DNA of 64,000 nucleotides from Heterodontus francisci (lineage: Eukaryota). The stretch is taken from NCBI RefSeq assembly GCF_036365525.1, contig NC_090411.1, positions 35,112,111 to 35,176,110 on the forward strand, given 5' to 3'. Below the pieces are notes generated by a model. That model searched no databases, had not been told where the DNA came from, and saw only the letters and a program-made list of their open reading frames with translations. Every line of letters starts with the position of its first letter. The first letter of the stretch is position 1. The translations under genes and the position numbers were made by a program. Shown in pieces: positions 3,184 to 58,726 of the stretch.

Positions 3184-4456
3184 TTAATAAAGAAACAGAA
3201 CCAAACCCATCAATCTTTACACATTTCACCAGCAGTCCATAACAAATTACAGTAATGCAGGACCATTCCTCATAACCAGCTAGGGTCCTATTATCTAGAT
3301 CTCCTCGCTCTACCCCCCCCCCCCACCACCACCCTTAGAAACCTTCGCAAAAGTTCTCTCTTCAATCAAGCTTTTTTCCCCATACCTGTTTCCTTTGCAG
3401 CCACATTGGCATATCCCTCAGGTTAAAAAAGATGCCATATAAATAAAGTTAATGAAAACTTTCATTGAAAAAGTCTCTACAAAGCAGTATTTAAACATTT
3501 CTTTTAAGTAATTAAAAAGAGTTGATGACAATTGGGCGACTTTGCTTCAATTCTTTTGGCACTAGCCACATGTACTATAGAAGCACTGGAGAAAGTGTAA
3601 AAACATTTTACAAAGATGGTACCAGAACTGAGATTACAGCTATCGGGAATAATTGACAAGTAGGAGCCAGAAAAAAAAAACTTAGAGAAAGGCCTGTTAG
3701 AGGTCTTTAAAATGATGAATGGGTTGGACAGGGTAGATAATGGAGAGAGTGTTTCCACTTGTGGGAGAATCTAAAACTAGGGGGCATCAATACAAGATAG
3801 TTACTAATAAATCCAATAGGGAAAATAAGGAAAGTTCTTTACTCAGTGTTTGAATTTGGAACTCATTACCAGGGGAAGTGTTTGAGGCAAATAGCTTAGA
3901 TGCTTTCAAAAGGAAACTAGATGAGTATGAGTGAAAAGGGAAAAGATATGCTGAAAGACTGAGATGAGACAGATGGATTGGAAGGGGTATTGTGTGCGGC
4001 AGGCATAACAGCACAGATTAGTCAGGCCAAATGGCCAGTTTGTTGTAGATTCTATATGATTCTGTGTGGCCAATTGGGAATTCAAATTTAAAAAACTGAG
4101 TAACAGACACCATGGTCTTCTTGGAGATTGTAACACTCATTCATGTGGTTTATGCATCTTGTGCATTTTTTGGCTGGAGGAGAAAAGTGTGCACTACACT
4201 TTCGTGGTTACTGAAATTCAGTGAATGTTTGTTACAAATATACAAGAGTGGGTACATTTACCTGAATGGTGTGCAAATCAAAGCTAGCGGCCAAAACAGT
4301 CACTGGGGCAGTCAGCAATGGAGCATCTCCTCTCCTCTGCCAACATTCACTGGCTGTATGCCAGTTTACACACAAAACAGAAGCCTCATGTTTGGGTACA
4401 CCTGTCACAGATGGTCAATGTGGCTGGAAATAGGACCCTCTAACATTACGACATCA

Positions 4457-4615
<159 letters not shown>

Positions 4616-6189
4616 TTAAAGACAAAGATCATTCGGTCAGAATGGACCAAAATTCAGCTGACAAAACAGCAGAACTGAAATACTAAAGCTCCTACTCCCC
4701 TTTGTACCAATCCTCATCATGTGGTGCAATGACTACAGTGACTACACTACAATAAAGTACCTTTGTTGGCTGTGAAGGATTTTGGAACATCTGGAGTTCA
4801 TGAAAGGCTCTATAGAAATGCAAGTTTGTTATTTTTCTATCTCTAGGTGACCATCTGAGCTCCTGTGACTGTCCCATACACCTCTAAAGGTAGGAGCTTG
4901 AATCCTGGTGTGTATCAGACTGTCCGCAGGCACTCCTTCATTAATCTGTTCTGTACTGCAGCTGGGTCATGGTTTCCAGGCTATAGGTAACTTAAGGATT
5001 AACTCATCTGACCTTGTGGACTTTTTCATCCGAAGGTTGCATTCACCTTCTCCAGGCCCTCAGCCCGCTGACTGAGTTAGTGCTTTCTGGAGATGACAGG
5101 GTTAGATAACCAGCATTCACCAGTCCCTGGTAGCACCAACTACGACAACAGGGTTTAAACATTGCACCCGTCTCAAAGCTTTCAAGTACTGATTTGACTT
5201 AAGTGAGGGGCGGGGGGGGGAAAGATAATATTATTTTCACTTGTTTCTGCATTGTGACCATCAGGCCCCACTTGTTCCAAACACTCAGCTCACACTTGCT
5301 GCATGCACAAGCTGGTACAGAGGCAAAGTCCTGTCATGATTACCTGCAGAGCTGATGGTGCAGCATCTCCACCCATGGTTTATAGGGTGGCAGGGTTCCG
5401 GCCTTACCACTGGAAACAAAAGTCACCTGATCAGGTGCTGTTGAGAGAATCCCTTTGCATATATGACATTTTGTTCATACAATACAGTGCTCTGGCTGCT
5501 CACCAGCTGACAGAAACGTTTCCACACTATGAACCTTATGTGCAGCAGTGCACTGAAAGTTGCACCAAGCCCCAGTAACAGACTGGGGCGGGGTCGTGGG
5601 GGCACTGTAACCCAATTCACACCCTGGTCTAGTGTGATGTGGAAAATTAGCAATGGCACCTAAATCAGGAAAGGACAGGACTAAAGTCAACTGGACTATT
5701 GTTTTCACCCACAGGTATCAGGTCAACACCTGTTGTATGATCTCACAGGCTGGCAGAGGGCAGCAGATAATCTTTGGAGGGGGAGGGGGAGGGGAGGGGG
5801 CGCGGTCAGTCGGTGCGTTCAGGTAGGCAGGAAAGGGGGGGAAAAACTACCTTAAAGAAAGGAGTCTATAACAGCTGAAGCTCCTTTGGGCATTAACAGT
5901 ATCAGCCACGGTTCAGTGGGTAACTCTCTCGTCTCGGAGTCAAGAGGTCATGGGTTCAAGTCCCACTCCAGAGACCTGAGCACAAAATCCAGGTTGATGC
6001 ACCGAGTGCAGTACGGAGAGAGTGCTACATCGTCGAAGGTGCAGTCTTTCGTATGTAGATAGTCCTCCGAAGCAGAAATAATAGTGTTATTGACTTCTTT
6101 TTTTTTTAAAAAGAGGGGGGGGGGGGGAGGAGGAGGAGGAGTTCTCCTCGTTGTCCTGGACCAATATGACTTAGCAAAGTGATCTGGAA

Positions 6190-11569: not shown

Positions 11570-12030
11570 ACCTTGGGAGTTCCAGGTTTTTGACCCAGCA
11601 AAAATGAAGGAGATGTGATATATTTCCAACTGAGGACGGTGAAACGTGAACTTGCAGGTGGTGATGTTCCCATACATCTACTGCCCTTGCCCTTCTAGGT
11701 GGTAAAGGTCATGGATTTAGGAAATGCTGTTGAAGCATTGGTGAGTCGCTGCAGTGCATCTTGTAGATGGTACACAGACTGCTTCATTATCTGAGGAGTT
11801 GCAAATGGAGCTGAACAAGGTACAATCATCAATCAACATCCCCACTTCTGACCCTATGATGGAGGGAAGGTCATTATGAAGCAGCTAAAGACAGTTGGAC
11901 CTAGGACACTACCATGAGGAACTCCTACAGCGATGTCCCAGGACTAAGATTGGTCTCCAATAAGCATAACCATCTACCTTTGTGCTATGAATGACTCCAG
12001 CCAGTGAAGAGCTCCCCCCAGTTCCTATCG
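11570..12030 (-). mobile_element. Older degenerate fragments of the same LINE family (similar remnants at about 14405-14535, 16610-16690, 53085-53190, 54680-55140)
   Basis: Diverged similarity to the RT/3' region of the 43033-46302 element. Confidence 0.65.
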
Positions 12031-13320
12031 ACTTCTCTTTTATTGAGCAATACTGAAATTGCTCTCTCATCGATCCAGGTCAGGGCATCACTCCAGATTC
12101 AATCTGCATTTACAATGCAAACCAAAGTCAAGCCTGTACACCCAGTCAGTGACAGCATAGGGAGGGTGCAGCAAATCAACTCATCGTGTGGAACAAAGCA
12201 ATAGGAGGCCATACAACCCCTCAAAACTGTTCCACCATGCATTACATCATGGCTTTTTTTTTAAAAAACACACTGTTGCTCCATAATCTCTCAGCACGCT
12301 TACCAACAAAAACATTAGTCTCAGTTTTGAAAGCAACAATTCACCCATAGTATGCATTGCATTTTTGAAGGGCGGGGAGAAAAAAAAAGTTCCAGATTTC
12401 CACTAGTTTGAGAGAAAAAGTGTTTCCTGATTTCACTCCTGAATTGCAGAGCAATTAAGAGTTTGCTTTTTAAACAAAACAGCTCAAAAGTATTTCATTG
12501 GCTGTAAAGCTCTTTGGGGTGTCCCAAGATCATGAAAGGCACTACAAAAATATAAGTCTTTCTTTCATTCCATCTATTTTTCAGACTGTGTTCCCTCAGT
12601 CTGGATTCGCCTACCACAGGAAATAGTGTCTCTGTATCTACCCTATTCCATACTTTTAGACACCTCAATCAGATCAGCCTCAATCGTTTTATACTCAAGG
12701 TTAAGAAAGGAGGCACTTGGGATGGTTTGGAGATGTTGGATGAAAGGGTTTGGAATCAAATTCCCAACAGTCCCCTAATACTTTCAATACCCTACCCACC
12801 CCTAATACTTCCAATACCCCCTGTACCCATCCCTATACGTCCAATATGCGCCCCCCCCCCCCCATCCCCACACCCATAGAATCATAGAAAGTGTACAGCA
12901 CAGAAAGAGACCACTTGGCCCATCATGTCTGCACCAGGCGAACGCGAGCCACCCAGTCTAATCCCACCTTCCAGTATTTGGTCCGTAGCCTTGAAGGCTA
13001 TGGCAGCTGAGGTGCATATCAATTTAAATGTTGAGGGTTTCTGCCTCTAGTACCCTTTCAGGTAGTGAGTTCCAGACCCTCACCACCCTCTGGGTGAAAA
13101 GATTTTTCCTCATTTCCCTTCTCCTAATACTTACCCCCAGTACTTCGCCCCCCCTCCCCCTCCACCCTAATACACCCATACCCACCCCAATAGCCCAAAA
13201 CTTCCTAAACACACCCCAGTACCCGCCCCTCCCCCAGGCTGACCATTACCCCCGGGTTGCCCCGCTCCTCTTAGCCCCAGAGCCCCGGGTTCCTCCTTCA
13301 ATCCCCGACCACCCGTTTAC

Positions 13321-15002: not shown

Positions 15003-15769
15003 GCAAGTAACATTCGCGCCACACAAGTGCCAAGAGAGAATCTAACCATCTCCCCTTGACATTCAATGACATTACCATCGCTGAATCCCCCACTATCAAC
15101 ATCCTAGGGGTTACCACTGACCAGAAACCGAACTGGAGTAGCCATATAAATACCATGGCTACAAGAGCAGGTCAGAGGCTAGGAATCCTGTGGCGAGTAA
15201 CTCACCTCCTGACTCCCCAAAGCCTGTCCACCATCTACAAGGCACAAGTCAGGAGTCTGATGGAATACTCTCCACTTGCCTGGATGGGTGCAGCTCCAAC
15301 AACACTCAAGAGGCTCGACACCATCCAGGACAAAGCAGCCCGCTTGATTGTCACCCCATTCACAAACATTCACTCTCTCCACCACCGACGCACAGTGGCA
15401 GCAGTGTGTACCATCTACAAGATGCACTGCAGCAACGCACCAAGGCTCCTTAGACAGCACCTTCCAAACCCACGACCTCTACCACCTAGAAGGACAAGGA
15501 CAGCAAATGCATGGGAACACCACCACCTGCAATTTCCCCTCCAAGTCACACACCATCCTGACTTGGAACTATATCGCCGTTCCTTCACTGTCGCGAGGTC
15601 AAAATCCTGGAACTCCCTTCCTAACAGCACTGTGGGTGTACCTACCCCACATGGACTGCAGCGGTTCAAGAAGGCAGCTCACCACCACCTTCTCAAGGAC
15701 AATTAGGGATGGGCAATAAATGCTGGCCTGGCCAGTGACGTCCACATCCCATGAATGAATTAAAAAAAA
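15003..15769 (+). mobile_element. 5'-truncated copy of the 43033-46302 LINE family
   Basis: Near-identical to about 45515-46300, with the same 3' UTR and poly(A) tail. Confidence 0.9.
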
Positions 15770-19408: not shown

Positions 19409-20237
19409 GTACCAGAAGCAGGAGGAAAGGATGTCACTGCCCTGTTGTAGCATGTTGCTGGGTAACACAGTTTTTGCTAAGGCTACTGTTAGCCATGGCT
19501 TAGTGGTGTAGCATTCAGTCGCCTCGGAGTCAGAAGGATGTGGGTTCAAGTCCCACTCCAGAGACTTGAGCGCGCAATGCAGAGTGACACTCCAGTACCG
19601 TGCTGAGGGAGTGCTGCACTGTCGGAGGTCCTGTCTTTCGGATGAGACGTTAAACCAAGGCTTCGTCTGGCCTCTCGGGTGGACGTTAGGTTCCCGTGGC
19701 TACTATTCGAAGAAGAGCCGGGGTGTGCTCTCATTGACCGTCACTACACTTCAATAGTATTCATTGGCTGTAAAGAACTGAGAGATGTCCTGAGGTTATG
19801 AAAGGCTACATAGAAATGCAAGTCTTTCTATCTGTCACAGGACACATTTGTTTCTAATAATGTTGCAGGATTCAAAGTGAATCAGAAGTTATAGCAGGGA
19901 AGGAGCCCATTTGGCCCTTCGTATCTGTTTGTACTAGCTTTTCAAGTGGAGCTACCTAGTCAAACCTCATTTTCTCTGAATGCTTTTATGTTCCTTTAAA
20001 AATTCTTACCCATTTCCTATTAAAATGATATAGGCTTTGTTTCAAAAGCCAGAGGTTTAGTAACTCCCTGTTCTAATAATGTGGAAAAAATTCTTTTAAC
20101 ATTTTTATCTTTGTTCTGTTGATGATTCTGTGCTGCCTTGTTACCGATTCACCAACCACAACAATTATATTGTGCCTTTAACATAGAACAACATGCCAAG
20201 GCACATCAGAGGCATAATCAGAAAAAAATGGAAGCTG

Positions 20238-30394: not shown

Positions 30395-33300
30395 AAGAAC
30401 ACAATAGGAGCAGGAGTAGACCATATGGCCCATCGAGCCTGCTGCACCATTCAATACGATCACGGCTGATCTTGGGCCACTTACCCACCTGTTCACCATA
30501 TCCCTTGATGCCCTGAGAGACCAAAAATCCGTCTATCCCAGCCTTAAATGTATTCAATGATAGAGCATCCACAACATTCTGGAGTAGAGAATTCCAAAGA
30601 TTCACAACTCTTTGAGTGAAGTAATTTCTCCTCATCTCAGTCCTAAATGATCGACCCCTTATCCTGAGACTTTTTTTTATTCATTCATGAGATGTTGGCG
30701 TCACTGGCAATGCCAGCATTTATTATCCATCCCTAATTGCCCTTGAGAAGGTGGTGGTGAGCTGTCTTCTTGAACTGCTGCAGTCCATTTGGGGTAGGTA
30801 TACCCACAGTGCTGTTAGGAAGGGAGTTCCAGGATTTTGACCCAGCGACAGTGAATGAACGGCAATATAGTTCCAAGTCAGGATGGTGTGTGACCTGGAT
30901 GGGAACTTGCAGGTGGTAGTGTTCCTATGCATCTGCTGCTCTTGTCCTTCGAGGTGGTAGAGGTCGCGGGTTTGGAAGGTGCTGTCTAAGGAGTTTTGGT
31001 GCGTTGCTGCAGTGCATCTTGTAGATGGTACACACTGCGGCCACTGTGCATTGGTGGTGGAGGGGGTGAATGTTTGTAGATGGGGTGCCAATCAAGCGGG
31101 CTGCTTTGTCCTGGATGGTGTCGAGCTTTTTGAGTGTTGTTGGAGCTGCACCCATCCAGGCAAGTGGAGAGTATTCCATCACACTCCTGACTTGTGCCTT
31201 GTAGATGTACAGGCTTTGGGAGTCAGGTGGTGAGTTACTCGCCGCAGGATTCCTAGCCTCTGACCTGCTCTTGTAGCCATGGTATTTATATGGCTACTCC
31301 AGTTCAGTGTCTGGTCAATGGTAGCCTCTAGGATGTTGATAGTGGGGGATTCAGCAATGGTAATGCCATTGAATGTCAAGGGGAGATGGTTAGATTCTCT
31401 CTTGTTGGAGATGGTCATTGCCTGGCACTTGTGTGGCACAAATGTTACTTGCCACTTATCAGCCCAAGCCTGGATATTGTCCAGGTCTTGCTGCATTTCT
31501 ACACGGACTGCTTCAGCATTTGAGGAGTCACGAATGGTGCTGAATATTGTGCAATCATCAGCAAACATCCCCACTTCTGACTGTATGATTGAAGGAAGGT
31601 CATTGATGAAGCAGCTGAAGATGGTTGGGCCTAGGACACTACCCTGAGGAACTCCTGCAGTGATGTCCTGGAGCTCAGATGATTGACCTCCAACAACCAC
31701 AGCCATCTTCCTTTGCGCTAGGTATGACTCTAACCAGCAGAGAGTTTTCCCCCTGATTCCCATTGACTCCAGTTTTACTAGGGCTCTTTGATGCTGCCTT
31801 GATGTCAAGGGCAGTTACTCTCACCTCACCTCTTGAGTTCTGCTCTTTTGTCCATGTTTGAACCAAGGCTGTAATGAGGTCAGGTGCTGAGTAGCCCTGG
31901 CAGAACCCAAACTGGGTATGACTGAGCAGGTTATTGCTAATCAAGTGCCGCTTGATGACACTGTTGATGACACCTTCCATCCCTTTACTAATGATTGAGA
32001 GTATACTGATGTGGTGGTAATTGATCGGGTTGGACTTGTCCTGCTTTTTGTGTACAGGACATACCTGGGCAATTTTCCACATTGCAGGGTAGATGCCAGT
32101 GTTGTAGCTGTACTGGAACAGCTTGGCTAGGGGTGCGGCAAGTTCTGGAGCACAGGTCTTCAGTACTATTGCTGGAATATTGTCAGGGCCCATAGCTTTT
32201 GCAGTATCCAGTGCCTTCAGTCGTTTCTCGATATCACGCGGGGTGAATTGAATTGGCTGAAGTCTGGCATCTGTGATGCTGGGGACTTCAGGAGGAGGCC
32301 GAGATGGATCATCAACTTGGCACTTCTGGCTGAAGATTGTTGCAAATGCTTCAGCCTTATCTTTCGCACTGATGTGCTGGGCTCCCCCATCATTGAGGAT
32401 GGGGATTTTGTGGAGCCACCTCCTCCAGTTAGTTGTTTAATTGTCCACCACCAATCACGGCTGTGCCCCCGTGTTTTAGATTCCTTGACCAGCGGAAACA
32501 ATCTCTGTGTCTACCCTATCCAGCCCTTTCAGAATCTACTATCTTTCAATGAGATCGCCTCTCATTCTTCTAAACTCCAGAGAAAATAGGCTCAATTTAC
32601 TCAGCCTCTCATCAAAAGACAACCCCATCATCCCAGGAACCAACTTAGTGAACCTTTGCTGTACCGTCTCCAATGCAAGTATATCCTTAAATGTGGAGAC
32701 CAGACTGCACACAGTATTCCAGATGTGGTCTCACCAAAACCCTGTACAATTGTCGCATGACTTCCTTATACCTGTACTCCAATCACCTTGCAATAAAGGC
32801 CAACGTGCCATTTGCCTTCTTAATTGCTTGCCGTATCTGTATGCTAACTGTCTACGTTCCTTGTACAAGAAAACCCAAGTCTCTTTGAACATCAACACTT
32901 ACGAGTTTCACACCTTTTTAAAAAAAAAAAAAATTCTGCTTTTCTATTCTTACGACCAAAGTGAATAACTTCATACTTCCCTACATTTTACTCCATCTGC
33001 CACTTAACCTGTCTATATCTCTTTGCAACCTCTCTGTGTCCTCCCCACAGCTTACCTTTCCACCTACCTTTGTATCATCAGCAAACTTAGATACATTACT
33101 CTCTCTCCCTTCATCTAATGTAGATTGTAAATAGCTGAGGCCCCAGCACTGATCCTCGAGGCACTCCACTGTTCAGTGCCTGCCAACTTGAAAATGCCCT
33201 GTTTATTCCCACCCGTTGCTTCCTGTCCATTAACCAATCCTCTGTCCATGCTAATATATTACCCCCAATTCCATGAGCCCTTATCTTGCCTATTAACCTC
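30395..33300 (-). mobile_element. CR1 3' portion split by the LINE at 30672-32463
   Basis: SKFADDTKVGG at 32981-33169; CR1 3' UTR at 30395-30671. Confidence 0.8.
30672..32463 (-). mobile_element. 5'-truncated copy of the 43033-46302 LINE family, inserted into a CR1 fragment
   Basis: Minus-strand RT ORFs (GVPQGSVLGP, FADD); poly(T) tail at about 30671; the host CR1 sequence resumes at about 32464. Confidence 0.9.
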
Positions 33301-41540: not shown

Positions 41541-43032
41541 CTAGAGACGGTCAGTTGTGGGAACCATTAAGTAAGACGAATGTTAAGTAATGCAGTGTTG
41601 CTTTTATGAGTCCTGATGCGGTGTCCATAAAGCTCTCGTGGCCATATTTGCAGAATCCCAATACTGCAGCATTTCTGAATGTGACCAACTTGTAAAATAC
41701 ATTTGTCTTTTTGGCACAGACTAGCACTGTGAACTGGAAGAAAAGCCTCTCAACCAAAATAGTATTACATTTAGCTGGTGGGTTAGTTGTGACCCTCTCA
41801 TTTTAGAAGGGATTGTTGTTGAATTAATGTGTTCAGAGAACTGGCCAAAGTTTGTTGCATTGGCAATCCCCCAATCCATCATTGTTGCTTTCTCCAATTA
41901 ATCAGATTGGAGCAAGTAGATTAAGGAAAACTGAGCCCCTGAGCAGACACCAGCCAGTTTGCAGACTTCCAACAGGGGCTCCGCAAACATGTGTATCTCT
42001 ATGGCCTCTGTTGCACTTTAAAAATGATAACTTTATTGCATAGTTAACACAGAACCTGGCATGATTACAGGCAGAAAGGTAATCAATTTGTATTTTTGCA
42101 TTATTACCACCCTGTCACTGTTTCTTATCCCTTGAATTTGGAAGAGGAATAAACGGTGCAAAGCTGAATAATAAACACTATATGTTTCGGGTAATTGTGA
42201 GGGTCATTTTTGTTTTATGATCCTCGGGCCACAGAAATAAACTGAGTTTCTGACCTGCCAGCTTTGTGATTCTTCCTTCATCCTATTTTGTATTGTGTCT
42301 ATACGAATGAAAAAAAAATTGTTTTAATAAAATCTTCGATTAATTTGTTTAAATATAAAACTAATAGTTTTTGTGGCCTTAATGTGTAACATAAGAGTAT
42401 ATGGCACTGTTTAAGAAAAGTCACTATTAAACTTTTCTTGGTAACAGATTTCAGTTTCCAACTCTTTCTTCCAACTGTAGTCATATCTAGGGGGAACAGC
42501 CTGCGATTTGGTCTTTTAGTATGCAATGGGTAGGTACACTTAAGGGTTTGATTCCAAGACTAGCAATTACTGTGGTTGATGGGGAGTGAAGATTTATCTT
42601 GTTTGTATAACTTGCTGCTATTTCGATAACACTGACCCATAAACAATTTAGCACCTTGGACAGGGAACCCTCACGTACTATTCTCACCAGTAATTTATAT
42701 GTTTGCAAGGCAGTATTGGAGTGATTTAGATATCTCATTAATAATGCCGCTACATTTTGAATGTTTACTGACTTTGATTCTAAGTCAGGGGAACACTTCC
42801 TCGGATTACTCCGCTGGAAGCTATGGGTCCTATGAATTTGTAGCCAAGAGTGCAAGTGGCCTGTGCATCTGAACCTCCACATGTCCTTGTACTATGCCTT
42901 CAGCTGCTTGGATCTTAAGTCTTGAAATTCCCTCCCTAAACCCCTCTATCTCTCTTTCCTCCATTAAGATGCTCCTTAAAACCTACCTCTTTGACCAAGG
43001 TTTTGGTCATCTGCCCTAATATCTCCTTAACA

Positions 43033-46000
43033 GGTAGACAGTGGCGTAGTGGTATTATCACTGGACTAATAACCCAGAGACCCAGGGTATTTCCTGGGTT
43101 CGAATCCCACCACAGCAGAAGGTGGAATTTGAATTTAATTAATAAATCTGGAATTAAAAGCTAGTCTAATGATGGCCATGAAACCATTGTTGATTGTTGT
43201 AAAAACCCATCTGGTTCACTAATGTCCTTTAGGGAAGGAAATCTGCTGTTCTTACCTGGTCTGGCCTACATGTGACTCCAGACCCACAGCAATGTGGTTA
43301 ACTCTTCCATGCCCTCTGAAATGGCCTAGCAAGCCACTCAGTTGTACCTAACCACTACGAAGTCAATAAAAAGGAATGAAACCGGACGGACCACCCAGCA
43401 TCGACCTAGGCACCGGAAATGACAATGGCAAACCCAGCCCTGTCGACCCTGCAAAGTCCTCCTGACTAACATCTGGGGGCTTGTGCCAAAGTTGGGAGAG
43501 CTGTCCCACAGACTAGTCAAGCAACAGCCTGACATAGTCATACTCATGGAATCATACCTTACAGACAATGTCGCAGACACTGCCATCACCATCCCCGGGT
43601 ATGTCCTGTCCCACCGGCAGGACAGACCCACCAGAGGTGGTGACACAGTGGTATACAGTAGGGAGGGAGTTGCCCTGGGAGTCCTCAACATCAACTCCGG
43701 ACCCCATGAAGTCTCATGGCTCCAGGTCAAACATGGGCAAGGTAACCTCCTACTGATTACCACCTACCACCCTCCCTCAGCTGATGACTCAGTACTCCTC
43801 CATGTTGAACACCACTTGGAGGAAGCACTGAGGGTGGCAAGGGCACAAAATGTACTCTGGATGGGGGACTTCAATGTCCATCACCAAGAGTGGCTCGATA
43901 GCACCACCACTGACCGAGCTGGCCGAGTCCTAAAGGACATAGCTGCTAGACTGGATCTGCGGCAGGTGGTGAGGGAAAAACATACTTGACCTCGTCCTCA
44001 CCAATCTGCCTACCGCAGATGCTTCTGTCCATGACTGTATTGGTAGGAGTGACCACCGCACAGTCTTTGTGGAGACAAAGTCCCGCCTTCACATTGAGGA
44101 TACCGTCCCTCGTGTTGTGTGGCACTACCACCGTGCTAAATGGGATAGATTTCGAACAGATCTAGCAATGTAAAACTGGGCATCCATGAGGCGCTGTGGG
44201 CCATCAGCAGCAGCAGAATTGTACTCAACCACAATCTGTAACCTCATGGCCCGGCATATTTCCCACTCTGCCATTACCATCAAGCCAGGAGACCAACCCT
44301 GGTTCAATGAAGAGTGCAGGAGGGCATGCCAGGAGCAGCACCAGGCACACTTCAAAATGAGGTGTCAACCTGGTGAATGTACAACACAGGACTATCTTCG
44401 TGCCAAACTGCGTAAGCAGCCTGCGATAGAGATAAGCGATCCCATAACCAACGGATCAGATCTAAGCTCTGCAGTCCTGCCACATCCAGCCGTGAATGGT
44501 GGTGAACAATTAAACAACTAACTGGAGGAGGTGGCTCCACAAATATCTCCATCCGCAATGATGGGGGAGCCCAGCACATCAGTACGAAAGATAAGGCTGA
44601 AGCATTTGCAACAATCTTCAGCCAGAAGTGCCAAGTTGATGATCCATCTTGGCCTCTTCCTGAAGTCCCCAGCATCACAGATGCCAGACTTCAGCCAATT
44701 CGATTCACTCCGCGTGATATCAAGAAACGACTGAAGGCACTGGATACTGCAAAAGCTATGGCCCTGACAACATTCCAGCAATAGTACTGAAGACCTGTGC
44801 TCCAGAACTTGCCATGCCCCTAGCCAAGCTGTTCCAGTACAGCTACAACACTGGCATCTACCCTGCAATGTGGAAAATTGCCCAGGTATGTCCTGTACAC
44901 AAAAAGCAGGACAAGTCCAACCCGATCAATTACTGCCCCATCAGCCTGCTCTCAATCATCAGTAAAGTGATGGAAGGTGTCATCAACAGTGCCATCAAGC
45001 GGCACTTGCTTAGCAATACCTGCTCAGTGACACTCAGTTTGGGTTCCGCCAGGGCCACTCAGCTCCTGACCTCATTACAGCCTTGGTTCAAACATGGACA
45101 AAAGAGCTGAACTCAAGAGGTGAGGTGAGAGTGACTGCCCTTGACATCAAGGCAGCATTTGACATCAAGTATGGCATCAAGGAGCCCTAGCAAAACTGAG
45201 GTCAATGGGAATCAGGGGGAAAACCCTCCGCTGGCTGGAATCATACCCAGCGCAAAGGAAGATGGTTGTAGTTGTTGGAGGTCAATCATCTGAGCTCCAG
45301 GACATCACTGCAGGAGTTCCTCAGGATAGTGTCCTAGGCCCAACCATCTTCAGCTGCTTCATCAATGACCTTCCTTCAATCATACGGTCAGAAGTGGGGA
45401 TGTTCGCTGATGATTGCACAATGTTCAGCACCATTCGTGACTTCTCAGATACTGAACCAGTCCGTGTAGAAATGCAGCAAGACCAGGACAATATCCAGGC
45501 TTGGGCTGATAAGTGGCAAGTAACATTCACACCACACAAGTGCCAGGCAATGACCATCTCCAACAAAAGAGAATCTAACCATCTCCCCTTGACATTCAAC
45601 GGCATTACCATCGCTGAATCCCCCACTATCAACATCCTAGGGGCTACCATTGACCAGAAACTGAACAGGAGTAGCCATATAAATACCGTGGCTACAAGAG
45701 CAGGTCAGAGGCTAGGAATCCTGTGGCGAATAACTCGCCTCCTGACTCCCAAAGCCTATCCACCATCTACAAGGCACAAGTCAGGGGTGTGATGGAATAC
45801 TCTCCACTTGCCTGGATGGGTGCAGCTCCAACAACACTCAAGAAGCTCAACACCATCCAGGACAAAGCAGCCCGCTTGACTGGCACCCCATCTACAAACA
45901 TTCACTCCCTCCACCACCAACGCACAGTGGCAGCAGTGTGTACCATCTACAAGATGCACTGCAGCAACGCACCAAGGCTCCTTAGACAGCACCTTCCAAA

Positions 46001-46302
46001 CCCGCAACCTCTATCACCTGGAAGGACAAGGGCAGCAAATGCATGGGAACACCAGCACCTGCAAGTCCCCCTCCATGTCACACACCATCCTGACTTGGAA
46101 CTATATCACCGTTCCTTCACTGTCACTGGGTCAAAATCCTGGAACTCCCTTCCTAACAGCACTGTGGGTATACCTACCCCAAATGGACTGCAGCGGTTCA
46201 AGAAGGCAGCTCACCACCACCTTCTCAAGGGCAATTAGGGATGGGCAATAAATGCTGGCCTGGCCAGCGACGCCCACAACCCATGAATGAATTAAAAAAA
46301 AA
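43033..46302 (+). mobile_element. Apparently full-length non-LTR retrotransposon (CR1/L2-group-like, single APE+RT ORF, frameshifted) with tRNA-like 5' head
   Basis: APE motifs KVLLTNIWGL, DIVILMES, MGDFNVH; RT motifs TALDIKAAFD, GVPQ.SVLGP, FADD; 3' end AATAAA...(ATGA)n + poly(A); A box 43042-43052 and B box 43097-43107. Clade not determined. Confidence 0.9.
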
Positions 46303-46557
46303 GCAAAATGCTGCGGATGCTGGAAATCTGAAATAAAAACAAGAAATGCTGGAAATACTCAGCAGGTCTGACAGCATCTGTGGAGAGAGAAACAGAGTTA
46401 ACGTTTCAGGTCAGTGACCCTTCTTCAGAACTTGGCAGCATCTGTGGAGAGAGAAGCAGAGTTAACGTTTCAAGTCAGTGACCCTTCTAGAGAACTTCTT
46501 CAGAGTTCAGATGCTGCCAGACCTGCTGATTATTTCCAGCATTTCTTGTTTTTATTT
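46303..46557. mobile_element. Penelope terminal-repeat-derived fold-back insertion with a tandem internal duplication
   Basis: Same family as 33606-33781; CTAATATCTCCTTA duplicated at 43016-43029 and 46558-46571. Confidence 0.8.
46396..46432 (-). ncRNA. Minimal hammerhead ribozyme motif (second copy; degenerate tandem copy at about 46460-46495)
   Basis: Minus strand: AGUU-CUGAAGA-AGGGUCACUGACCU-GAAAC-GUU-AACU. Confidence 0.65.
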
Positions 46558-48886
46558 CTAATATCTCCTTATGTCGCTTTGTCACAAATTTTGATAACGT
46601 TCCTGTGATGTGCCTTGGGATGTTTTATTGTGTTAAAGGCGCTATATGAATGCAAGTTAGTGTCATCCAACGTCAACAATCCAATTGGATTTTTCACTGC
46701 TGCTCTGAGGTTGTGCCTCTGCTCAGTAATATGCAGCTTGGCTCAGAGCAGAGCGAGCCATTCCGATCAGTTCATCCCTTTCTTCATAAATAAGACACAC
46801 ACCTTGTTTACTTTTTGCTGATGCATTCAACCTGGGGAGGGCTCTTGCAAGAGAAAGTTTTAAGTAATGAATATTCTGCGAGGGAATTTGGAAAATAAAA
46901 AGCCGCACAGCAATGAGAAACAGTAACACTGCTTCCAAATGATGCAACATTAAGTTCAGCCTGTATATTGCTGTTTTTAGTTAGTGCTGAGTCACTTATT
47001 GCAAATTATACAGTGACAGTAACTATGCAGCCAGTGTCATGGCATTCCATAGTAACTCCATGGAGATATGCAAATTACAAGTCCTTATGCAAGGTAAGTG
47101 CCATACTGTAGGCTGCAGAGACCAAGTCAACACAATGGAGCTTTGTAAGAAGGCAAATCAAGTGGTTCATGTGACATTGTCATGAAGCGCAAGCTCAATA
47201 TGCAAGCTGTTTATGAACATCAGCTGAACCCTGAGATTTTAAGTCCGTGAGATAATAACCAGATCATGTGTGCATATAAAACCATACAGCACCGCAGGAG
47301 TCCATTCAGCCCATCATGCCTGTGCTGGCCTTTTGAAAGAGCTGTCCAATTAGTCCCATTTCCCCCTTTGCTTTTTCCCCATTGCCCCGTAACTTTTTCT
47401 GTTTCAAGTATTTCTCCAATTCCCCTTTGAAGATTATTATTGAATTTGTTTCCACCCCCCTTTCAGATCATAACTCGCTGCGGAAAAAAAAATTCCCCTC
47501 AACTCTCCTCTGGTTCTTCTGCCAACCTTAAATCCGCGTCCTCTAGTTACTGACAGAGTAAATAGGGAGAACTATTTCTACTATCAAAACTCCACGTGAT
47601 TTTGAACATCTCTATTAAATCGCCCTTTAACCTTCTCAGCTTAAGTAGAACAATTGCAGCTTCCCTCAGGTCCAATCCTAAATTTACCATTAAACCATTA
47701 AACAAGGGTGACACTGTTGGTGCTCGAGGAGCTGAAGTCTACCTTTCGGAGGCTGAATGCCAATTCTCTGACCTCTCCTTCCATGACCCCACATCAAGCC
47801 ATCACTTCCCAGACTGTCACCGACCTCATCTCCGCTGGAGAGCTTATCTCCACAGCCTTCAACTTCATCGTCCCTCAACCCCACACAGACCACGTCTACC
47901 TCATTTCAAAGATCTACAACAGGGTTGCCTGATAGGGCAATCATTTAAGCCATGGCACTGATTTCTTCCGATATCAACTATTTTTTTCTTCTACTCCTGT
48001 CCTGTCTCTTCCCACCTACGTCCATGACTTCCAACACCCACTACCACTTTAACAGTTTCCTGGCCCCAACCCATCTCCTTTTCACCATGAACATCCAATC
48101 CCTTTACACTTCCAACTCCCACCAGGACGGTCTTAAGGCTCTCCACTTCTTCCTTGAATGGAGGCCCAACTAGTCCTCATCCACCACCACCCTCCTCCAC
48201 CTGTCTGAACTTGTTCTCACATTGAACAACTTCTCCTTTAACTCCATTCACTTCATCCAAATAAAAAGTGTTGCTATGGAAACCTGTAAGGTTCCTAGCT
48301 ATGTCTGCCTTTTTGTGGGATATGTGAAACATTCTTTGTTGGAACCTTTCTCGGACCCTCTTGCTCATCTCTGTTTCTGGTAAATTGATGACTGTATCAC
48401 GGCTCTCGACCTGAACTGGAAAATGTCATCAGCTTTGTTTCCCATTTCCACCCTTCCCTCATCTGCACATGGTTCATCTCTGACTCTTCCCTTACCTTTG
48501 TCAACTTCTCTATCTCCATTTTTGCAATAGACTGTTGGTCAATATCTGCTCTACTCCACTGACTCCCACAGCTACCTTACACTGATTACACTTCCTCACA
48601 TCTTCCTGTAAGGAGTCTATTCCATTCTCCCAGTTTTTCTGTCTCTGTCCTGTTGATGCCACCTCCCATACCAATGCTTTCAATATGTCTTCCTTTTTCC
48701 TCAACTGAGGATTCCCCCTCCACCGTGGTCGACAGGGCCCTTGACCATGTCTGTCCCACTTCCCGCACATCTGTTCTCGCTTCCCCTCCTTCCCTCCCAG
48801 AATCACGATCAGGTTACCATTGTCTGCACCTTCCACCCCATCAGCCTCCACAAGCAATGCATCATCTTCCACCAATTCCACCACCT

Positions 48887-51800
48887 GGAGGGATGGTGCA
48901 GGAGGGAGGGTTTTGGTTTCCTGGATAATTGGGGCTCTTTCTGGGGTAGGTGGGACCTCTACAAACAGGATGGTCTTCACCTGAACCAGAGGGGTACCAA
49001 TATCCTGGGGGGGAGATTTGCTAGTGCTCTTCGGGGGGGGTTTAAACTAATTCAGCAGGGGAATGGGAACCTAAATTGTAATGCCAGTGTACAGGATGTT
49101 GAGAGTAGTGAGGTCAGGGATAAGGTTACAAGGACGCAATAGGGCACTGGCAAGCAAGAACCTGGTTTAAAGTGTGTCTACTTCAACGCCAGGAGCATCC
49201 GGAATAAGGTGGGTGAGCTTGCAGCATGGGTTGGTACCTGGGATCTCGATGTAGTGGCCATTTCGGAGACATGGGTAGAGCAGGGGCAGGAATGGATGTT
49301 GCAGGTTCCGGGATTTAGATGTTTCAGTAAGAACAGAGAAGATGGTAAAAGAGGGGGGGGGGGGGGGGTGGCATTGTTAATCAAGGAGAGTATTACAGGG
49401 ACAGAAAGGACATTTGAGGACTCGTCTACTGAGGTAGTATGGGCCGAGGTTAGAAACAGGAGAGGTGAGGTCACCCTGTTGGGAGTCTTTTATAGACCTC
49501 CGAATAGTTCCAGAGATGTAGAGGAAAGGATAGCGAAGATGATTCTCGACAGGGGCGAGAGTAACAGGGTAGTTATTATGGGGGACTTTAACTTTCCAAA
49601 TATTGACTGGAAATACTATAGTTCGAGTACTTTAGATGGGTCAGTTTTTGTCCAGTGTGTGCAGGAGGGTTTTCTGACACAGTATGTAGACAGGCCAACC
49701 AGGGGCGATGCCACATTGGATTTGGTACTGGGAAATGAACCCGGCCAGGTGTTAGATTTAGATGTAGGTGAGCACTTTGGTGATAGTGATCACAATTCGG
49801 TTAGGTTTACCTTAGCGATGGGCAGGGACAGGTATATACCGCAGGGCAAGAATTATAGCTGGGGGAGAGGAAATTATGATGCGATTAGGTAAGATTTAGG
49901 ATGCGTAGGATGGGGAAGGAAACTGCAGGGGATGGGAACAATCGAAATGTGGAGCTTATTCAAGGAGCAGCTACTGCGTGTCCTTGATAAGTATGTATCT
50001 GTCAGGCAGGGAGGAAGTTGTCAAGCGAGGGAGCCGTGGTTTACTAAAGAAGTTGAAGCGCTTGTCAAGAGGAAGAAGAAGGCTTATGTTAGGATGAGAC
50101 GTGAAGGCTCAGTTAGGGCGCTTGAGAGTTACAAGCTAGCCAGGAAGGATCTAAAGGGAGAGCTAAGAAGAGCAAGGAGAGGACACGAGAAGTCATTGGC
50201 GGATAGGATCAGGGAAAACCCTAAGGCTTTCTATAGGTATATCAGGAATAAAAGAATGACTAGAGTTAGATTAGGGCCAATCAAGGATAGTAGTGGGAAG
50301 TTGTGTGTGGAATCAGAGGAGATAGGGGAAGCGTTAAATGAATATTTTGCGTCAGTATTTACAGTAGAGAAAGAAAATGTTGTCGAGGAGAATACTGAGA
50401 TTCAGGCTACTAGGCTAGATGGGATTGAGGTTCACAAGGAGGAGGTGTTATCAATTTTGGAAAGTGTGAAAATAGATAAGTCCCCTGGGCCAGATGGGAT
50501 TTATCCTAGGATTCTCTGGGAAGCTAGGGAGGAGATTGCAGAGCCTTTGTCCTTGATCTTTATGTCGTCATTGTCGACAGGAATAGTGCCGGAAGACTGG
50601 AGGATAGCAAATGTTGTCCCCTTGTTCAAGAAGGGGAGTAGAGACAGCCCTGGTAATTATAGACCTGTGAGCCTTACTTCGGTTGTGGGTAAAATATTGG
50701 AAAAGGTTATAAGAGACAGGATTTATAATCATCTAGAAAAGAATACGTTCATTAGCGATAGTCAGCACGGTTTTGTGAAGGGTAGGTCGTGCCTCACAAA
50801 CCTTATTGAGTTTTTCGAGAAGGTGACCAAACAGGTGGATGAGGGTAAAGCAGTGGATGTGGTGTATATGGATTTCAGTAAGGCGTTTGATAAGGTTCCC
50901 CATGGTAGGTTATTGCAGAAAATACGGAAGTATGGGGTTGAAGGTGATTTAGAGCTTTGGATCAGAAATTGGCTAGCTGAAAGAAGACAGAGGGTGGTGG
51001 TTGATGGCAAATGTTCATCCTGGAGTTTAGTTACTAGTGGTGTATCGCAAGGATCTGTTTTGGGGCCACTGCTGTTTGTCATTTTTATAAATGACCTGGA
51101 AGAGGGTGTAGAAGGGTGGGTTAGTAAATTTGCGGATGACACTAAGGTCGGTGGAGTTGTGGATAGTGCCGAAGGATGTTGTAGGGTACAAAGGGACATA
51201 GATAGGCTGCAGAGCTGGGCTGAGAGATGGCAAATGGAGTTTAATGCGGAAAAGTGTGAGGTGATTCGCTTTGGAAGGAGTAACAGGAATGCAGAGTACT
51301 GGGCTAATGGGAAGATTCTTGGTAGTGTAGATGAACAGAGAGATCGTGGTGTCCAGGTACATAAATCCCTGAAGGTTGGTACCCAGGTTAATAGGGATGT
51401 TAAGAAGGCATATGGGGTGTTAGCTTTTATTAGTAGGGGGATCGAGTTTCGGAGCCACGAGGTCATGCTGCAGCTGTACAAAACTCTGGTGAGACCGCAC
51501 CTGGAGTATTGCGTGCAGTTCTGGTCACCACATTATAGGAAGGATGTGGAAGCTTTGGAAAGGGTGCAGAGGAGATTTACTAGGATGTTGCCTGGTATGG
51601 AGGGAAGGTCTTACGAGGAAAGGCTGAGGGACTTGAGGTTGTTTTCGTTGGAGAGAAGGAGGAGGAGAGGTGACTTAATAGAGACATATAAGATAATCAG
51701 AGGGTTAGATAGGGTGGATAGTGAGAGTCTTTTTCCTCGGATGGTGATGGCAAACACGAGGGGACATAGCTTTAAGTTGAGGGGTGATAGATATAGGACA

Positions 51801-52024
51801 GATGTCAGAGGTAGTTTCTTTACTCAGAGAGTAGTAGGGGCGTGGAACGCCCTGCCTGCAACAGTAGTAGACTCGTCAACTTTAAGGGCATTTAAGTGGT
51901 CATTGGATAGACGTATGGATGAAAATGGAATAGTGTAGGTCAGATGGTTTCACAGGTCGGCGCAACATCGAGGGCCGAAGGGCCTGTACTGCGCTGTAAT
52001 GTTCTAATTCTAATTCTAATTCTA
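48887..52024 (+). mobile_element. Young 5'-truncated CR1 LINE: end of ORF1 (SGNH esterase) plus near-intact ORF2 (APE+RT)
   Basis: DGLHLN esterase motif; LKCVYFNARSIRNK/GDFNFP/SDH endonuclease; YMDFSKAFDKVPH, QGSVLGP, FADD RT; in-frame stops at 49140 and 49890; (ATTCTA)n tail; ACCT repeated at 48883-48886 and 52025-52028. Confidence 0.95.
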
Positions 52025-54308: not shown

Positions 54309-55899
54309 AAATGGCCCTATATGAATGTGGGTTGTTGATGCTTTATTAATTATTTCACATCACACTGTAGCAAGGTTAGAAGCAAGTTGCGTGCAATACA
54401 ATTATCCACGCTGCCTGGTTTTATCAGTATCTTCTTTTCGTTGTTTTCCCAAATAGTTTTATTCGCATCAATGGCGAGGAGTGATTGCCCCGGGAACGAA
54501 AGTGACTGATGGAAATGATTGCATACTGCAGTGGTGATGTTAACAAAATTACAAGAGTGCATAAAATATAAGATATAGAAAAAGAAAACGTGGCACAAAC
54601 AAACACTGGGTTCTCACAGAGCTTTGCATGGTGGTTGCAATACCTGCATGGTATGTAATTTTTTCAGTATTTATGTGTCACACCTTCCACATTGCCTTTA
54701 AAAGGTGGTGATGGATCACCTGCTCTTTGAGTACGAGTGATGAAGGTGTATCCACAGTGCTGTAAGGTTGGGAGTTTCAGAGTTTTGACCCAGCAACAAT
54801 GAAAAAATGGCCGGCATATGTGCAGCTCAGGATGGTGAATGAATTGGAGGCGAGCCTGGAAGCAGTTGTCTTCCTAAGATATTGCTGCTGTTGTCTTTCT
54901 CAGCACTTGAGGGAAATCCGGGTGTTCCTGCAATTGTCTTTGATGTTGTTGACGTAACCCTGGTTGAGTTGCTGCAATGCATTCTGTAGATAGCATATAA
55001 TGTAGCTACAGTGCACTATTGGTGAAGGAGGTGGCTGTTGAGTTCAGTGGCAAGGGCATCATTGAAGTGAACTGCTCCGTCCAGGATACTGCCTGGATAG
55101 CTTCTTGAGGGTCATTGTAGCTACTCCCATCCAGGCAACTCTTTAAGATCATCTATAAAAACTATCTCTTTGACTAAGCTTTTGTTCACTTGTCTTAAAT
55201 CTTTGGCTCGGTGTCTGCTCCTGTGAAGTGCCTTGGGGCACAAGAGCACAAGAAATAGGAACATGCGGCCCCTCAAGTCTGCTCTGCCATTTAATACAAT
55301 CAGGATCTGATTGTGGCCTTAGTTCCACTTTCCTGCCAGCCCCATAACACTTGACATCCTTACAGATCAAAAATCTATTTAACTCAGCCTTGGATATATT
55401 CAATGACCGAGCCTCCACTGCTCCCTGGGGAAGAAAATTCCAAATATTAGCAACCCTCTGAGAGAAGAAATTGCTCCTCATCTCCATCTTAAATGGGAGA
55501 CCCCTTATTTTGAAACTTTGCCCCCTAGTTCTAGATTCCCCTACGAGGGGAAACATAATTTCAGCATCTACCTGTCAAGTGCCTTCAGAATGATATATGT
55601 TTCAATATAGATCATTTCTCATTGTTCTGAACTCCAATGAGTATAGGCCCAACCTGCTCAACCGTTCCTCATAAGCCAACCCCTTCATCAACCTCGTGAA
55701 GCTTCTCTGAACTGCCTCCAGTGCAGGAATTTTAATGCAAGTTGTCTTTAGTCTGTACACCTGAAATGTTAGCCACTCTCCTTTCTTCCAAATGCTGGAG
55801 ACCTGGTATATATTTCCAACATTTTCTGGTTTTGCATCAAATTTCAAACATTTGGCTGTTTTTTTCTTCTTTTTATTTCAATTTTAATTTTGAAGTGTG

Positions 55900-56340: not shown

Positions 56341-57691
56341 TGATTATTTGAAGCTGGCAGTTCACGCTCTTTTATCTTTTATTTGTGACCCACTTAGAGG
56401 CAAGAAAACTCACACCATTAGGATGAAATATTTCTCCCCAAAGCCAGCAAGTTTACCCACACTGGTTTATTTATTAATTCCTGGAGGAAAGTAAAGGTGG
56501 AATTTGTGGAGACACTGGCCATAATCTCCCAATCGTCCTTAGATACAGGCATGGTACCAGAGGACTGGAGAATTGCAAATGTTACACCCTTGTTCAAAAA
56601 AGATTGTAAGGATAAGCCCAGCAATTACAGGCCAGTCAGTTTAACCTCGATGGTGGGAAAGTGTTTAGAAGTGATAACCGGGACAAAATTAAGTCACTAG
56701 GCGAAGTATAGATTTATTAAGGAAAGCCAGCATGGATTTGTTAAATCGTGCTTAACTAACTTGAATGAGTTTTTTGATGCAGTAACAGAGAGGGTTGTTG
56801 AGGGTTATGTGATTGATGTGTTTACATGGACTTCCAAAATGCATTTGATAAAGTGCCACATAACAGGCTTGTCAGCAAAGTTGGCAGCATGGATACGAAG
56901 TTGGCTGAGTGACAGGAAACAGAGAGTAGAGGTGAACGGTTGTTTTTTGGACTGGAGGAAGGTATACAGTATGGTATTAGGACCTTGATATAGATTAATG
57001 GTCTAGACTTGGGTGTACAGGGCACAATTTCAACATTTTCAGATGAATCAAAACTTGGAAGTATTGTGAATTGTGAGGAGGATAGTGATAGACTTCAAGA
57101 GTACATAGACAGGCTGGTCTAATAGGTGGATGCATGGCAGATGAAATTTAATGCAGAGAAATGTGAAGTGATTCATTTTGGCTGGAAGAACGAGGAGAGG
57201 CGATATAAAATAAAGGGTGTAATTCTAAAGGGGGTGCAGGAACAGAGAGACCTGTGGGTGTATGTGCACAAATCATTGAAGGTGACAGGGCAGGTTCAGG
57301 AAGTGGTTAATCAGGCATTTGGGATCCTGGGCTTTATAAATAGAGGCATAGAGTACAAAAGCTAGGAAAGTATGATGAACTTTTATAAAACACTGGTTTG
57401 GCCTCAACTGGAGTATTTTGTCCAATTCTGGACATCACACTTCAGGAAGGATGTGAAGGCATTAGAGAGGGTGCAGAAAAGATTTACAAGACTGGTTCCA
57501 GGGATGAGGGACTTCAGTTACATGGAAAGATTAGAGAAGACGTATTTGGATTTTCAGAAGGCTTTCAATAAGGTCCCACACAGAAGGTTAGTAAGCAAAA
57601 TTAGAGCACATAGGATTGGGGGTGATATACTGGCATGGATTGAGAATTGGTGAACGGACAGAAAACAGAGAGTAGGAATAAACGGGTCATT

Positions 57692-58726
57692 GTGGTTGTT
57701 GGAGGTCAATCATCTGAGCTCCAGGACTTCACTGCAGGAGCTCCTCAGGGTAGTGTCCTAGGCCCAACCATCTTCAGCTGCTTCATCAATGACTTTCCTC
57801 CATCATAAGGTCAGAAGTGGGGATGTTCGCTGATGATTGCACAATGTTCAGCACCATTCGTGATTCCTCAGATACTGAAGCAGTCCGTGTAGAAATGCAG
57901 CAAGACCTGGACAATATCCAGGCTTGGGCTGATAAGTGGCAAGTAATATTCACACCACACAAGTGCCAGGCAATGACCATCTCCAACAAGAGAGAATTTA
58001 ACCATCTCCCCTTGACATTCAACGGCATTACCATCGCTGAATCCCCCACTATTAACATCCTAGGGGTTACCATTGATCAGAAACTGAACAGGAGTAGCCA
58101 TATAAATACCGTGGCTACAAGAGCAGGTCAGAGGCTAGGAATCCTGAGGCGAGTAACTCACCTCCTGACTTCCCAAAGCCTGTCCACCATCTACAAGGCA
58201 CAAGTCAGGAGTGTGATGGAATACTCTCCACATGCCTGGATGGGTGCAGCTCCAACAACACTCAAGAAGCTCAACACCATCCAGGACAAATCAGCCCGCT
58301 TGATAGGCACCCCATCTACAAACATTCACTCCCTCCACCACCGACGCACAGTGGCAGCAGTGTGTACCATCTACAAGATGTACTGCAGCAATGCACCAAG
58401 GCTCCTTAGACAGCACCTTCCAAACCTGCGACCTCTACCAACTTGAAGGACAAGGGCAGCAGATGCATGGGAACATCACCACCTGCAATTTCCCCTCCAA
58501 GCCACACACCATCCTGACTTGGAACTATATCGCCGTTCCTTCACTGTCACTGGGTCAAAATCCTGGAACTCCCTTCCTAACGGCACTGTGGGTGTACCTG
58601 CCCCACATGGACTGCAGTGGTTCAAGAAGGCAGCTCACCACCACCTTCTCAAGGGCAATTAGGGATGGACAATAAATGCTGGCCTGGCCAGCGACGCCCA
58701 CATCCCATGAATGAATTTTTAAAAAA
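57692..58726 (+). mobile_element. 5'-truncated copy of the 43033-46302 LINE family, nested in a CR1
   Basis: RT C-terminal ORF 57817-58446 and the family 3' tail; the CR1 continues on both sides. Confidence 0.9.

Follow-up and report, generated by a model that had tools for sequence, protein, structure and literature searches.

A Zenon LINE of sharks and rays with a tRNA-like head and probable transcription by RNA polymerase III

Can a retrotransposon that encodes its own reverse transcriptase (RT) be transcribed by RNA polymerase III (Pol III)? This question is raised by a 64,000-nt stretch of the 6.0-Gb genome of Heterodontus francisci (contig NC_090411.1, positions 35,112,111–35,176,110; hereafter the window). 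At 43033–46302 on the forward strand, the window carries a 3.27-kb copy of a retrotransposon lacking long terminal repeats (non-LTR), in which an A box, a B box, a leader, a broken frame for an endonuclease (APE) and an RT, and a short poly-A tail follow one another. It is a decayed copy of the shark/ray Zenon long interspersed nuclear element (LINE), with one open reading frame (ORF) and a tRNA-like head at the 5' end. The original prediction, made from the letters of the window, held that this family makes its protein-coding RNA with Pol III. Our analysis suggests that the full-length RNA is likely a Pol III product that is likely translated independently of a cap. The parts of the element are as follows.

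43033–43117, + strand: tRNA-like head with a long variable arm; the family 5' end lies 1 base earlier, and this copy has a 9-nt deletion immediately 5' of the B box (alignment without the mis-oriented row L245).
43042–43052, + strand: A box, a type 2 Pol III promoter element; copies selected on LINE-only DNA yielded 51 heads, and 33 of these have it exactly.
43097–43107, + strand: B box; exact in 34 of the same 51 heads.
43118–43343, + strand: 5' leader, which a partner short interspersed nuclear element (SINE) has in common with the element as far as element position 311; unsupported as a Deu domain.
43321–43329, + strand: nearest in-frame AUG 5' of the endonuclease, with UAG in frame two codons on; AUG and UAG present in 72 of 97 copies.
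43330–46238, + strand: single ORF, broken here, with APE at about 43468–43980 and RT at about 44880–45650 (Pfam PF03372, PF14529 and PF00078).
43376–43378, + strand: conserved AUG in the +1 frame, with a short overlapping frame of about 46 codons; also found by eye in six of seven published shark/ray consensuses.
46225–46302, + strand: 3' tail common to the element and the SINE, with a stem-loop, an ATGA repeat and a short poly-A.

In old copies and young ones alike, the head forms the true 5' end of the family. To avoid circularity, copies were picked on LINE-only DNA. Among 29 copies picked on the endonuclease (two of which, L071 and L080, have common flanks), 24 reach element position 20 or lower, one starts at position 38, and four are cut or rearranged; among 39 picked on the leader–ORF junction of an old copy, 27 reach the same point, five start at positions 30–83 and seven at 112–352. 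The A box is reached in 51 of these 68 copies, as expected if full-length copies begin at the tRNA head, and both boxes are exact in 23 of the 51 decayed heads. No alternative common 5' end was found among the 68 copies, and 14 truncated copies have no other 5' junction in common. The boxes have the positions and letters originally given to them, and the A box does lie close to the first base, but the family start is 1 base further upstream, 10 nt 5' of the T of the A box. This edge is sharp: of the 43 LINE heads and 12 SINE heads, 34 and 9, respectively, have G at −10, and the letters are random by −12. Old copies bear diagnostic variants of the same head, indicating that the head has been attached throughout the sampled history. 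A chance SINE–LINE chimera is ruled out by the family-wide head in the LINE-picked copies and by the seven elasmobranch Zenon consensuses described below.

The likeness of the head to a tRNA has faded. ARAGORN found no tRNA and Rfam no tRNA match in the window copy, and an undeleted copy gave a weak full-length match to the tRNA clan (tRNA-Sec model, 20.3 bits, E 0.054, below the gathering threshold). A search for the parent, in which just two tRNA types were compared, did not find it; tRNA-Thr was best for two of three heads, with a score of 50 versus about 24 for shuffled sequences. The fold z-score of the head (−1.6) is not significant.

The same head and leader occur in a second kind of repeat. 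The partner SINE, of 390 nt, consists of the 5' 311 nt and the 3' 78 nt of the element, and its leader–tail joining pattern has at least 3,890 exact matches (control, 0). Its first base is that of the LINE. In 20 SINE loci that were read, element positions 1–311 are fused to about 3190–3270 in several junction forms, and a tree built from 48 heads, with L184 excluded and a rough bootstrap, intermingles SINE and LINE heads, with six label changes, two of which are forced by well-supported branches. The SINE appears to have originated by ORF deletion more than once. Because it spreads with only the 5' part in common, its promoter should lie in what the LINE also carries. The common 3' tail folds as a long stem-loop of a type recognised by LINE proteins (fold z −1.4, not significant). 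A short A tail is present in 30 of the 31 copies listed, and a run of four T or more (T4) occurs in the flank, 0–437 nt 3' of the tail, in 28 of the 31. No consistent target-site duplication was found among the copies checked.

The family is already in print. Stuart et al. (2026; PMC13343379) describe Zenon as a lineage of the CR1 group without ORF1 and with poly-A, present in elasmobranchs, coelacanth and hagfish, and state that the poly-A tail is unique to Zenon within the CR1 group. The present element likewise has a single APE+RT ORF, no ORF1 and a poly-A tail. The head and the avoidance of T-runs described below are not remarked on in the available text of that paper, the main text of which has no match to tRNA, promoter or polymerase and the supplement none to tRNA. 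The elasmobranch consensuses (CarCar_Zenon-1, HypSab_Zenon-1, RhiTyp_Zenon-1, ScyCan_Zenon-1 and SquAca_Zenon-1 to -3), 2,886–3,314 nt in length as published and likewise without ORF1 and with poly-A, have the same head, leader and ORF start. In this comparison, made by eye on the first 400 nt of each row, all seven consensuses, from five species, open with the head and leader and agree with the element over these 400 nt, and a 15-nt leader word matches six of the rows. Two hagfish Zenons (EptBur_Zenon-1 and -2) and one coelacanth Zenon (LatCha_Zenon-1) have no head and contain T4 runs in their first 400 nt. These three, the metagenome loci L100, L103, L104 and L105, which we infer to be Zenons, and the proteins P0003–P0122 also have a single APE+RT ORF, with 41–49% identity in the RT region and poly-A ends in L100, L103 and L104, but no A/B-box head in the available sequence, in which contig ends may cut off 5' ends. 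No B box was found near the frame start in 65 loci with frames of at least 350 codons, and ARAGORN found no tRNA in the 60 loci scanned out of 80 relatives, many contigs in both sets being without a 5' end; Rfam gave no match in five relatives. In an RT tree, which includes no named Zenon protein, the element groups with single-ORF RTs of marine invertebrates (amphioxus P0036, crab P0110), apart from the CR1 of its own genome (27% identity). Canonical vertebrate CR1 has an esterase ORF1 before ORF2, which the neighbouring CR1 family has (PF13472) and the element lacks.

In the head-less relatives, we also observed a 5' motif of about 55 nt common to L100 (180–215) and L103 (391–425 and 450–485), with 85–89% identity between the two loci and two occurrences in L103. 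It bears a loose resemblance to a hammerhead core with a small hairpin inside, without an Rfam match, and by eye a similar stretch seems to occur in EptBur_Zenon-2. Should this motif be a ribozyme, uncapped RNA may already have been produced in the clade ahead of the gain of the tRNA head.

A comparable architecture was described by Kojima (2018; PMC5786205), who reported tRNA-headed SINEs built on bipartite LINEs, with only RTE and Vingi named as donors in the accessible text. Those SINEs join a tRNA head to the 5' part and 3' tail of a LINE, as the 390-nt partner SINE does. However, in that model the head joins a non-autonomous deletion derivative and the autonomous LINE is a Pol II element, whereas here the coding LINE has the head. 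The shark Deu-SINEs (SacSINE1; PMC5499810 and PMC3747384, accessible parts) likewise have a tRNA-derived head and a LINE-type tail in the same host group, but the SacSINE1 tail, compared by description only, is reported as L2-like, and the present leader lacks the Deu motif. The 23-nt motif printed in the available supplement of PMC7245038, the one motif used, matches at 19628, 25341 and 56036 with up to three mismatches and nowhere in 43033–43400, so that identification of the leader as a Deu domain is unsupported. The leader has no match to UCON3 by eye and no homology to invertebrate 5' regions (best nhmmer E 0.93 over 80 loci). Elsewhere in the window, other tRNA-headed SINEs are marked by A/B-box heads at 5953, 17154, 19543 and 22191 and by the three Deu matches. 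No description of a Pol III-driven autonomous LINE was found in the open full-text literature; subscription papers, Repbase and Dfam lay outside this search, and an earlier remark may exist. A word search of the accessible supplements of PMC5804259 and PMC4824008, one file of the latter excepted, gave no match.

The second line of evidence concerns T-runs. The sense strand of 43033–46302 contains no T4 and 16 runs of four or more A, in agreement with the zero and about 15 previously counted by eye. On the forward strand, the longest T4-free stretch of the whole window is 43005–46548 (3,544 nt), the next being 1,302 nt, against a background of 5.6 T4 per kb. There is no T4 among the commonest letters of 29 young copies. 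Three 5'-truncated copies in the window are also T4-free, each on its own sense strand, as had been noted.

15003–15769, + strand: 5'-truncated copy, 92% identity.
30671–32463, − strand: 5'-truncated copy, 93% identity.
57690–58726, + strand: 5'-truncated copy, 95% identity.

The neighbouring CR1 at 48887–52024, with about a dozen T4 by the earlier estimate, has 13. The absence of T4 is significant against a mononucleotide null (4.9 expected, P 0.005) but not against dinucleotide (2.1 expected, P 0.12) or trinucleotide (0.9 expected, P 0.41) nulls. Nor does it beat synonymous-codon shuffles (2.2–2.6 expected overall), with P 0.085 for the window copy (2.2 expected) and 0.052 for L271, a natural 5'-truncated copy with an open frame of 956 codons. 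This borderline outcome (P 0.05–0.09) arises because few T4-prone sites remain. The earlier caveat about low T content was justified, and T4 absence, borderline against the codon and dinucleotide nulls, was dropped as stand-alone proof.

The robust signal is the depletion of TTT and longer runs, which is specific to T and extends along the sense strand. At T/C third positions outside CpG, we compared the use of T according to the length of the run that this T would create. In L271, T is used at 81/235 isolated, 31/125 TT-making, 2/34 TTT-making and 0/5 TTTT-making sites, so that avoidance grows with run length (0.34, 0.25, 0.06 and 0.00); at sites making a run of three or more, T occurs at 2/39 versus 81/235 isolated sites (P 5e-5). 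The window copy gives 71/227, 29/125, 3/35 and 0/4, respectively, or 3/39 versus 71/227. The A/G mirror of this test is flat. Runs of three or more T number 5 versus 17.3 expected. TTT is the most depleted non-CpG triplet, TA and TTA also being depleted, and occurs less often than would follow from the rate of TT (binomial P 0.001–0.06, depending on the assumption); T before A at T/C synonymous sites is not avoided (47/126 versus 34/109). The non-canonical terminator classes of PMC3141230 together with T4 occur twice versus 12.1 expected, and over 29 copies the mean number of sites in each of the strong classes, T3VT2 and T2VT3, is 0.0, versus 1.45 and 4.24 for their A mirrors. Neither these two classes nor T4 are found inside the unit of the window copy or among the commonest letters of the young copies.

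This avoidance is largely absent in other elements. T4 frequencies are 0–0.2 per kb in the element and 2.2–4.5 per kb in four other LINE groups of the genome, including the neighbouring CR1, in which T use at TTT-making synonymous sites is 0.41–0.72. The log odds of T3 are −2.07 in the element versus a mean of 0.08 (sd 0.40, minimum −0.79) in 38 metagenome relatives, which are those with frames of at least 700 codons among 80 loci fetched. The four closest relatives with DNA give +1.38, +0.37, −0.38 and +0.30. T4 runs are near expectation in the head-less relatives, unlike in the element, which is the contrast that the original prediction called for. Its broader claim, that selection purged Pol III terminators from the coding region, is borne out in part: T4 absence fails the codon shuffle, a control that the prediction itself had listed as a way to refute it, and only the T3 avoidance at synonymous sites, a post hoc statistic, supports the claim.

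Several further candidates were set aside. A pool of 39 copies (L049 left out) has 18 T4 versus 85 expected, a comparison without a significance test among non-independent copies. A recurrent T4 at element position ~1116 (14 of 47 copies, and the commonest state in older classes) reflects CpG decay that makes a stop codon and is therefore neither a T4 of the source lineage nor evidence for selection on T-runs. A T-run before the poly-A of some copies was considered as a relic of a Pol III terminator, but an internal A-run shows similar T-for-A changes. The low Phe content (2.1% versus 3.3 ± 0.9% in 79 relatives) is too weak. Separately, the Phe content of two related single-ORF proteins, P0029 and P0031, is unusually small (1.7%), although both are rich in Lys and Asn. 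A distant CR1-group frame at L117 (54–2789; 912 codons, 5' end missing) has no T4 versus 5.6 expected, 32 runs of four or more A and no T3 avoidance; it is possibly a second case, or chance among 65 tests.

The element is also a coding one. It has a single APE+RT ORF, no ORF1 and only about 300 nt between its 5' end and the frame. The leader running straight into the ORF and a poly-A, as originally read, is present in all its parts in the window copy, but the ORF is split by frameshifts and stops into at least seven pieces. Over 730 codons, the old class differs from the young one by 30 silent and 8 replacement changes, versus 287 and 700 for private changes (P 7e-10). The ORF was thus under purifying selection, and the head-bearing lineage was, by this silent excess, autonomous; the 3.3-kb element is therefore not a non-coding, non-autonomous SINE.

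The way in which its protein is started would be unusual. No open AUG is present 5' of the endonuclease, the in-frame AUG at 43321 being followed by UAG, which is found in 74 of the first 100 pattern matches, and in L271 an in-frame Met is first reached past the endonuclease. By eye, the frame from that AUG, as needed for a start by UAG read-through, holds in three of five published species and not in the whale shark and dogfish consensuses. GAG and CAG variants at the UAG were rejected as signs of open source copies, CCTA being a T-to-G hotspot elsewhere too. Such changes in the copies of the genome number 20/431 versus 0.6% overall, at 43321–43329 and at CCTAG sites at element positions 375, 2156 and 2304. 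A non-standard start would fit an uncapped RNA. The single-ORF non-LTR element R2 offers a parallel, as its RNA does not come from Pol II and its translation needs neither a cap nor an AUG. R2 lies inside ribosomal DNA, is co-transcribed with it by Pol I and is excised by a ribozyme, with no promoter of its own.

Taken together, the head, the first base common with the SINE, and a T-specific run avoidance that is absent in head-less kin make Pol III the best explanation. We consider it quite probable that the copied RNA is a product of Pol III, and likely that the same RNA is also the message. The complete account, which we favour to a modest degree, is that of an autonomous coding retrotransposon wholly dependent on Pol III, with one uncapped 3.3-kb RNA as message and template, a non-standard start, persistence since before the shark/ray split, and repeated generation of SINEs by ORF deletion without a later addition of a head. 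An ancestral head-less Zenon would have gained a tRNA-derived head before that split. TFIIIC would bind the A and B boxes, and Pol III would start 10 nt upstream of the A box and read past the tail as far as a flanking T-run. Source copies gaining T-runs would yield truncated RNA and no offspring, so that T3 and T4 would be purged. Translation may start at a non-AUG codon, by UAG read-through or by coupling to the short +1 frame. The protein would bind the 3' stem-loop and copy the RNA by target-primed reverse transcription, and deletion of the ORF would give a ready-made SINE.

Public runs from several coded organisms contain the element, and in four of them (contigs, three being only guessed to be RNA) 30 of 30 bins are covered in 4/4, with the SINE joint present. 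As to termination, the available text of PMC5725217 reports for human cells none at T1–T3 and 18–75% at T4, and that of PMC3141230 uses T3 as a negative control. T4 is absent within 90 nt for 22 of the 30 top-scoring tRNA genes of the present genome, and 21 of these 22 have a T3 signal directly 3'. High-copy tRNA-Thr and tRNA-Lys genes (L297–L319 and L324–L326), apparently in arrays, mostly have T3-type ends.

A number of observations weigh against the Pol III account. The absence of T4 is, on its own, borderline and weaker than originally stated. T4 is leaky in human cells, and ten tRNA-Lys genes of this genome have an internal T4, so that T4 is no absolute bar; avoidance of T3 would require greater sensitivity of Pol III in fish, or variants of T3, and the 30 tRNA genes, mostly tandem-array copies that may or may not be active, give only a hint. 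The T3 statistic was picked after the data had been seen. The copies amount to one sample, since they all trace back to a single source lineage that changes slowly (backbone ~0.05 changes per site). In the k-mer test TA is depleted as strongly as TT (z −4.1 and −3.6), and four T3 runs persist in the head and leader. Among the controls, one LINE group shows mild T3 avoidance (76/167 versus 216/367; four related copies), and CR1 has 15 strong terminator-like sites versus 22.3 under the null (P 0.015). No fully intact head-bearing copy occurs among the copies examined, translation of an uncapped 3.3-kb RNA with several upstream AUGs would need an explanation, and the public-run contigs show no start, strand, level or cap.

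Three other explanations were weighed. It is unlikely that the element is a Pol II LINE with its promoter in the leader or flank, a head that is a captured relic or an enhancer, and T-runs avoided for another reason at the RNA level, such as U-rich decay elements, U-specific nucleases or premature 3' processing. This would accord with the view that LINEs use Pol II, as held in the accessible text of PMC5786205, with the loss of TA and with a head that no longer scores as a tRNA, but not with A and B boxes kept in five shark/ray species or a first base identical in LINE and SINE; moreover, other LINEs of the host meet the same nucleases yet show no T-run avoidance, and the shortage of TTT exceeds that set by TT.

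Unlikely, too, is a division of labour in which the Pol III RNA, in effect a very long SINE, is copied and the protein comes in trans from capped Pol II RNAs that arise by host read-through or an internal start. The lack of an open AUG and the evident mobilisation of the SINE in trans fit this explanation, as does, weakly, the rise in public-run contig depth toward the 3' end, as from read-through of truncated copies. However, the head-bearing lineage kept its ORF under purifying selection, which would be simplest if the copied RNA were the translated one. Preference for the RNA in cis is known from other LINEs.

Very improbable is an origin of the pattern in low T content (20%) or RT error bias without polymerase-linked selection, which the trinucleotide null and the single lineage would allow, since the synonymous test is conditioned on the element's own use of T and shows a stronger effect the longer the run, C to T predominates among private changes (171 versus 48) and would create T-runs, no such bias is seen in the four closest relatives with DNA, and the head is left unexplained.

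The Zenon family is abundant, with at least 6,044 exact leader–ORF junctions in the genome. Copies picked by likeness have 90–95% identity to the window copy, and older ones 75–92%. The window holds one further fragment of the lineage.

11575–12041, − strand: older fragment of the same lineage with an internal deletion, 76–78% identity.

Another old fragment, at 54696–55139 (− strand), has 65% identity to the 3' region of the element, its best genomic matches over its length being just 66–68%; it is perhaps a relic of an extinct sister lineage. A different repeat with inverted ends abuts the poly-A tail at 46303–46558; the window has at least seven occurrences of it, and in L202 it is found inserted into a SINE copy. 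The CR1 at 48887–52024 is young and canonical, with 98–99% identity to other copies, an esterase ORF1 and, in other copies, an intact ORF2 of 970 codons.

If the Pol III account of the shark/ray Zenon is true, the working rule that assigns LINEs to Pol II and reserves Pol III for non-coding SINEs no longer holds, and a vertebrate is shown to have a natural 3.3-kb Pol III message. The export and translation of uncapped Pol III RNA would then be open to test in one small element. SINEs would arise by ORF deletion from a promoter-bearing LINE, the reverse of the order in the accessible account of PMC5786205. Finally, the account would suggest that fish Pol III terminates at T3-type signals and would offer a compact promoter–leader for long Pol III transcripts.

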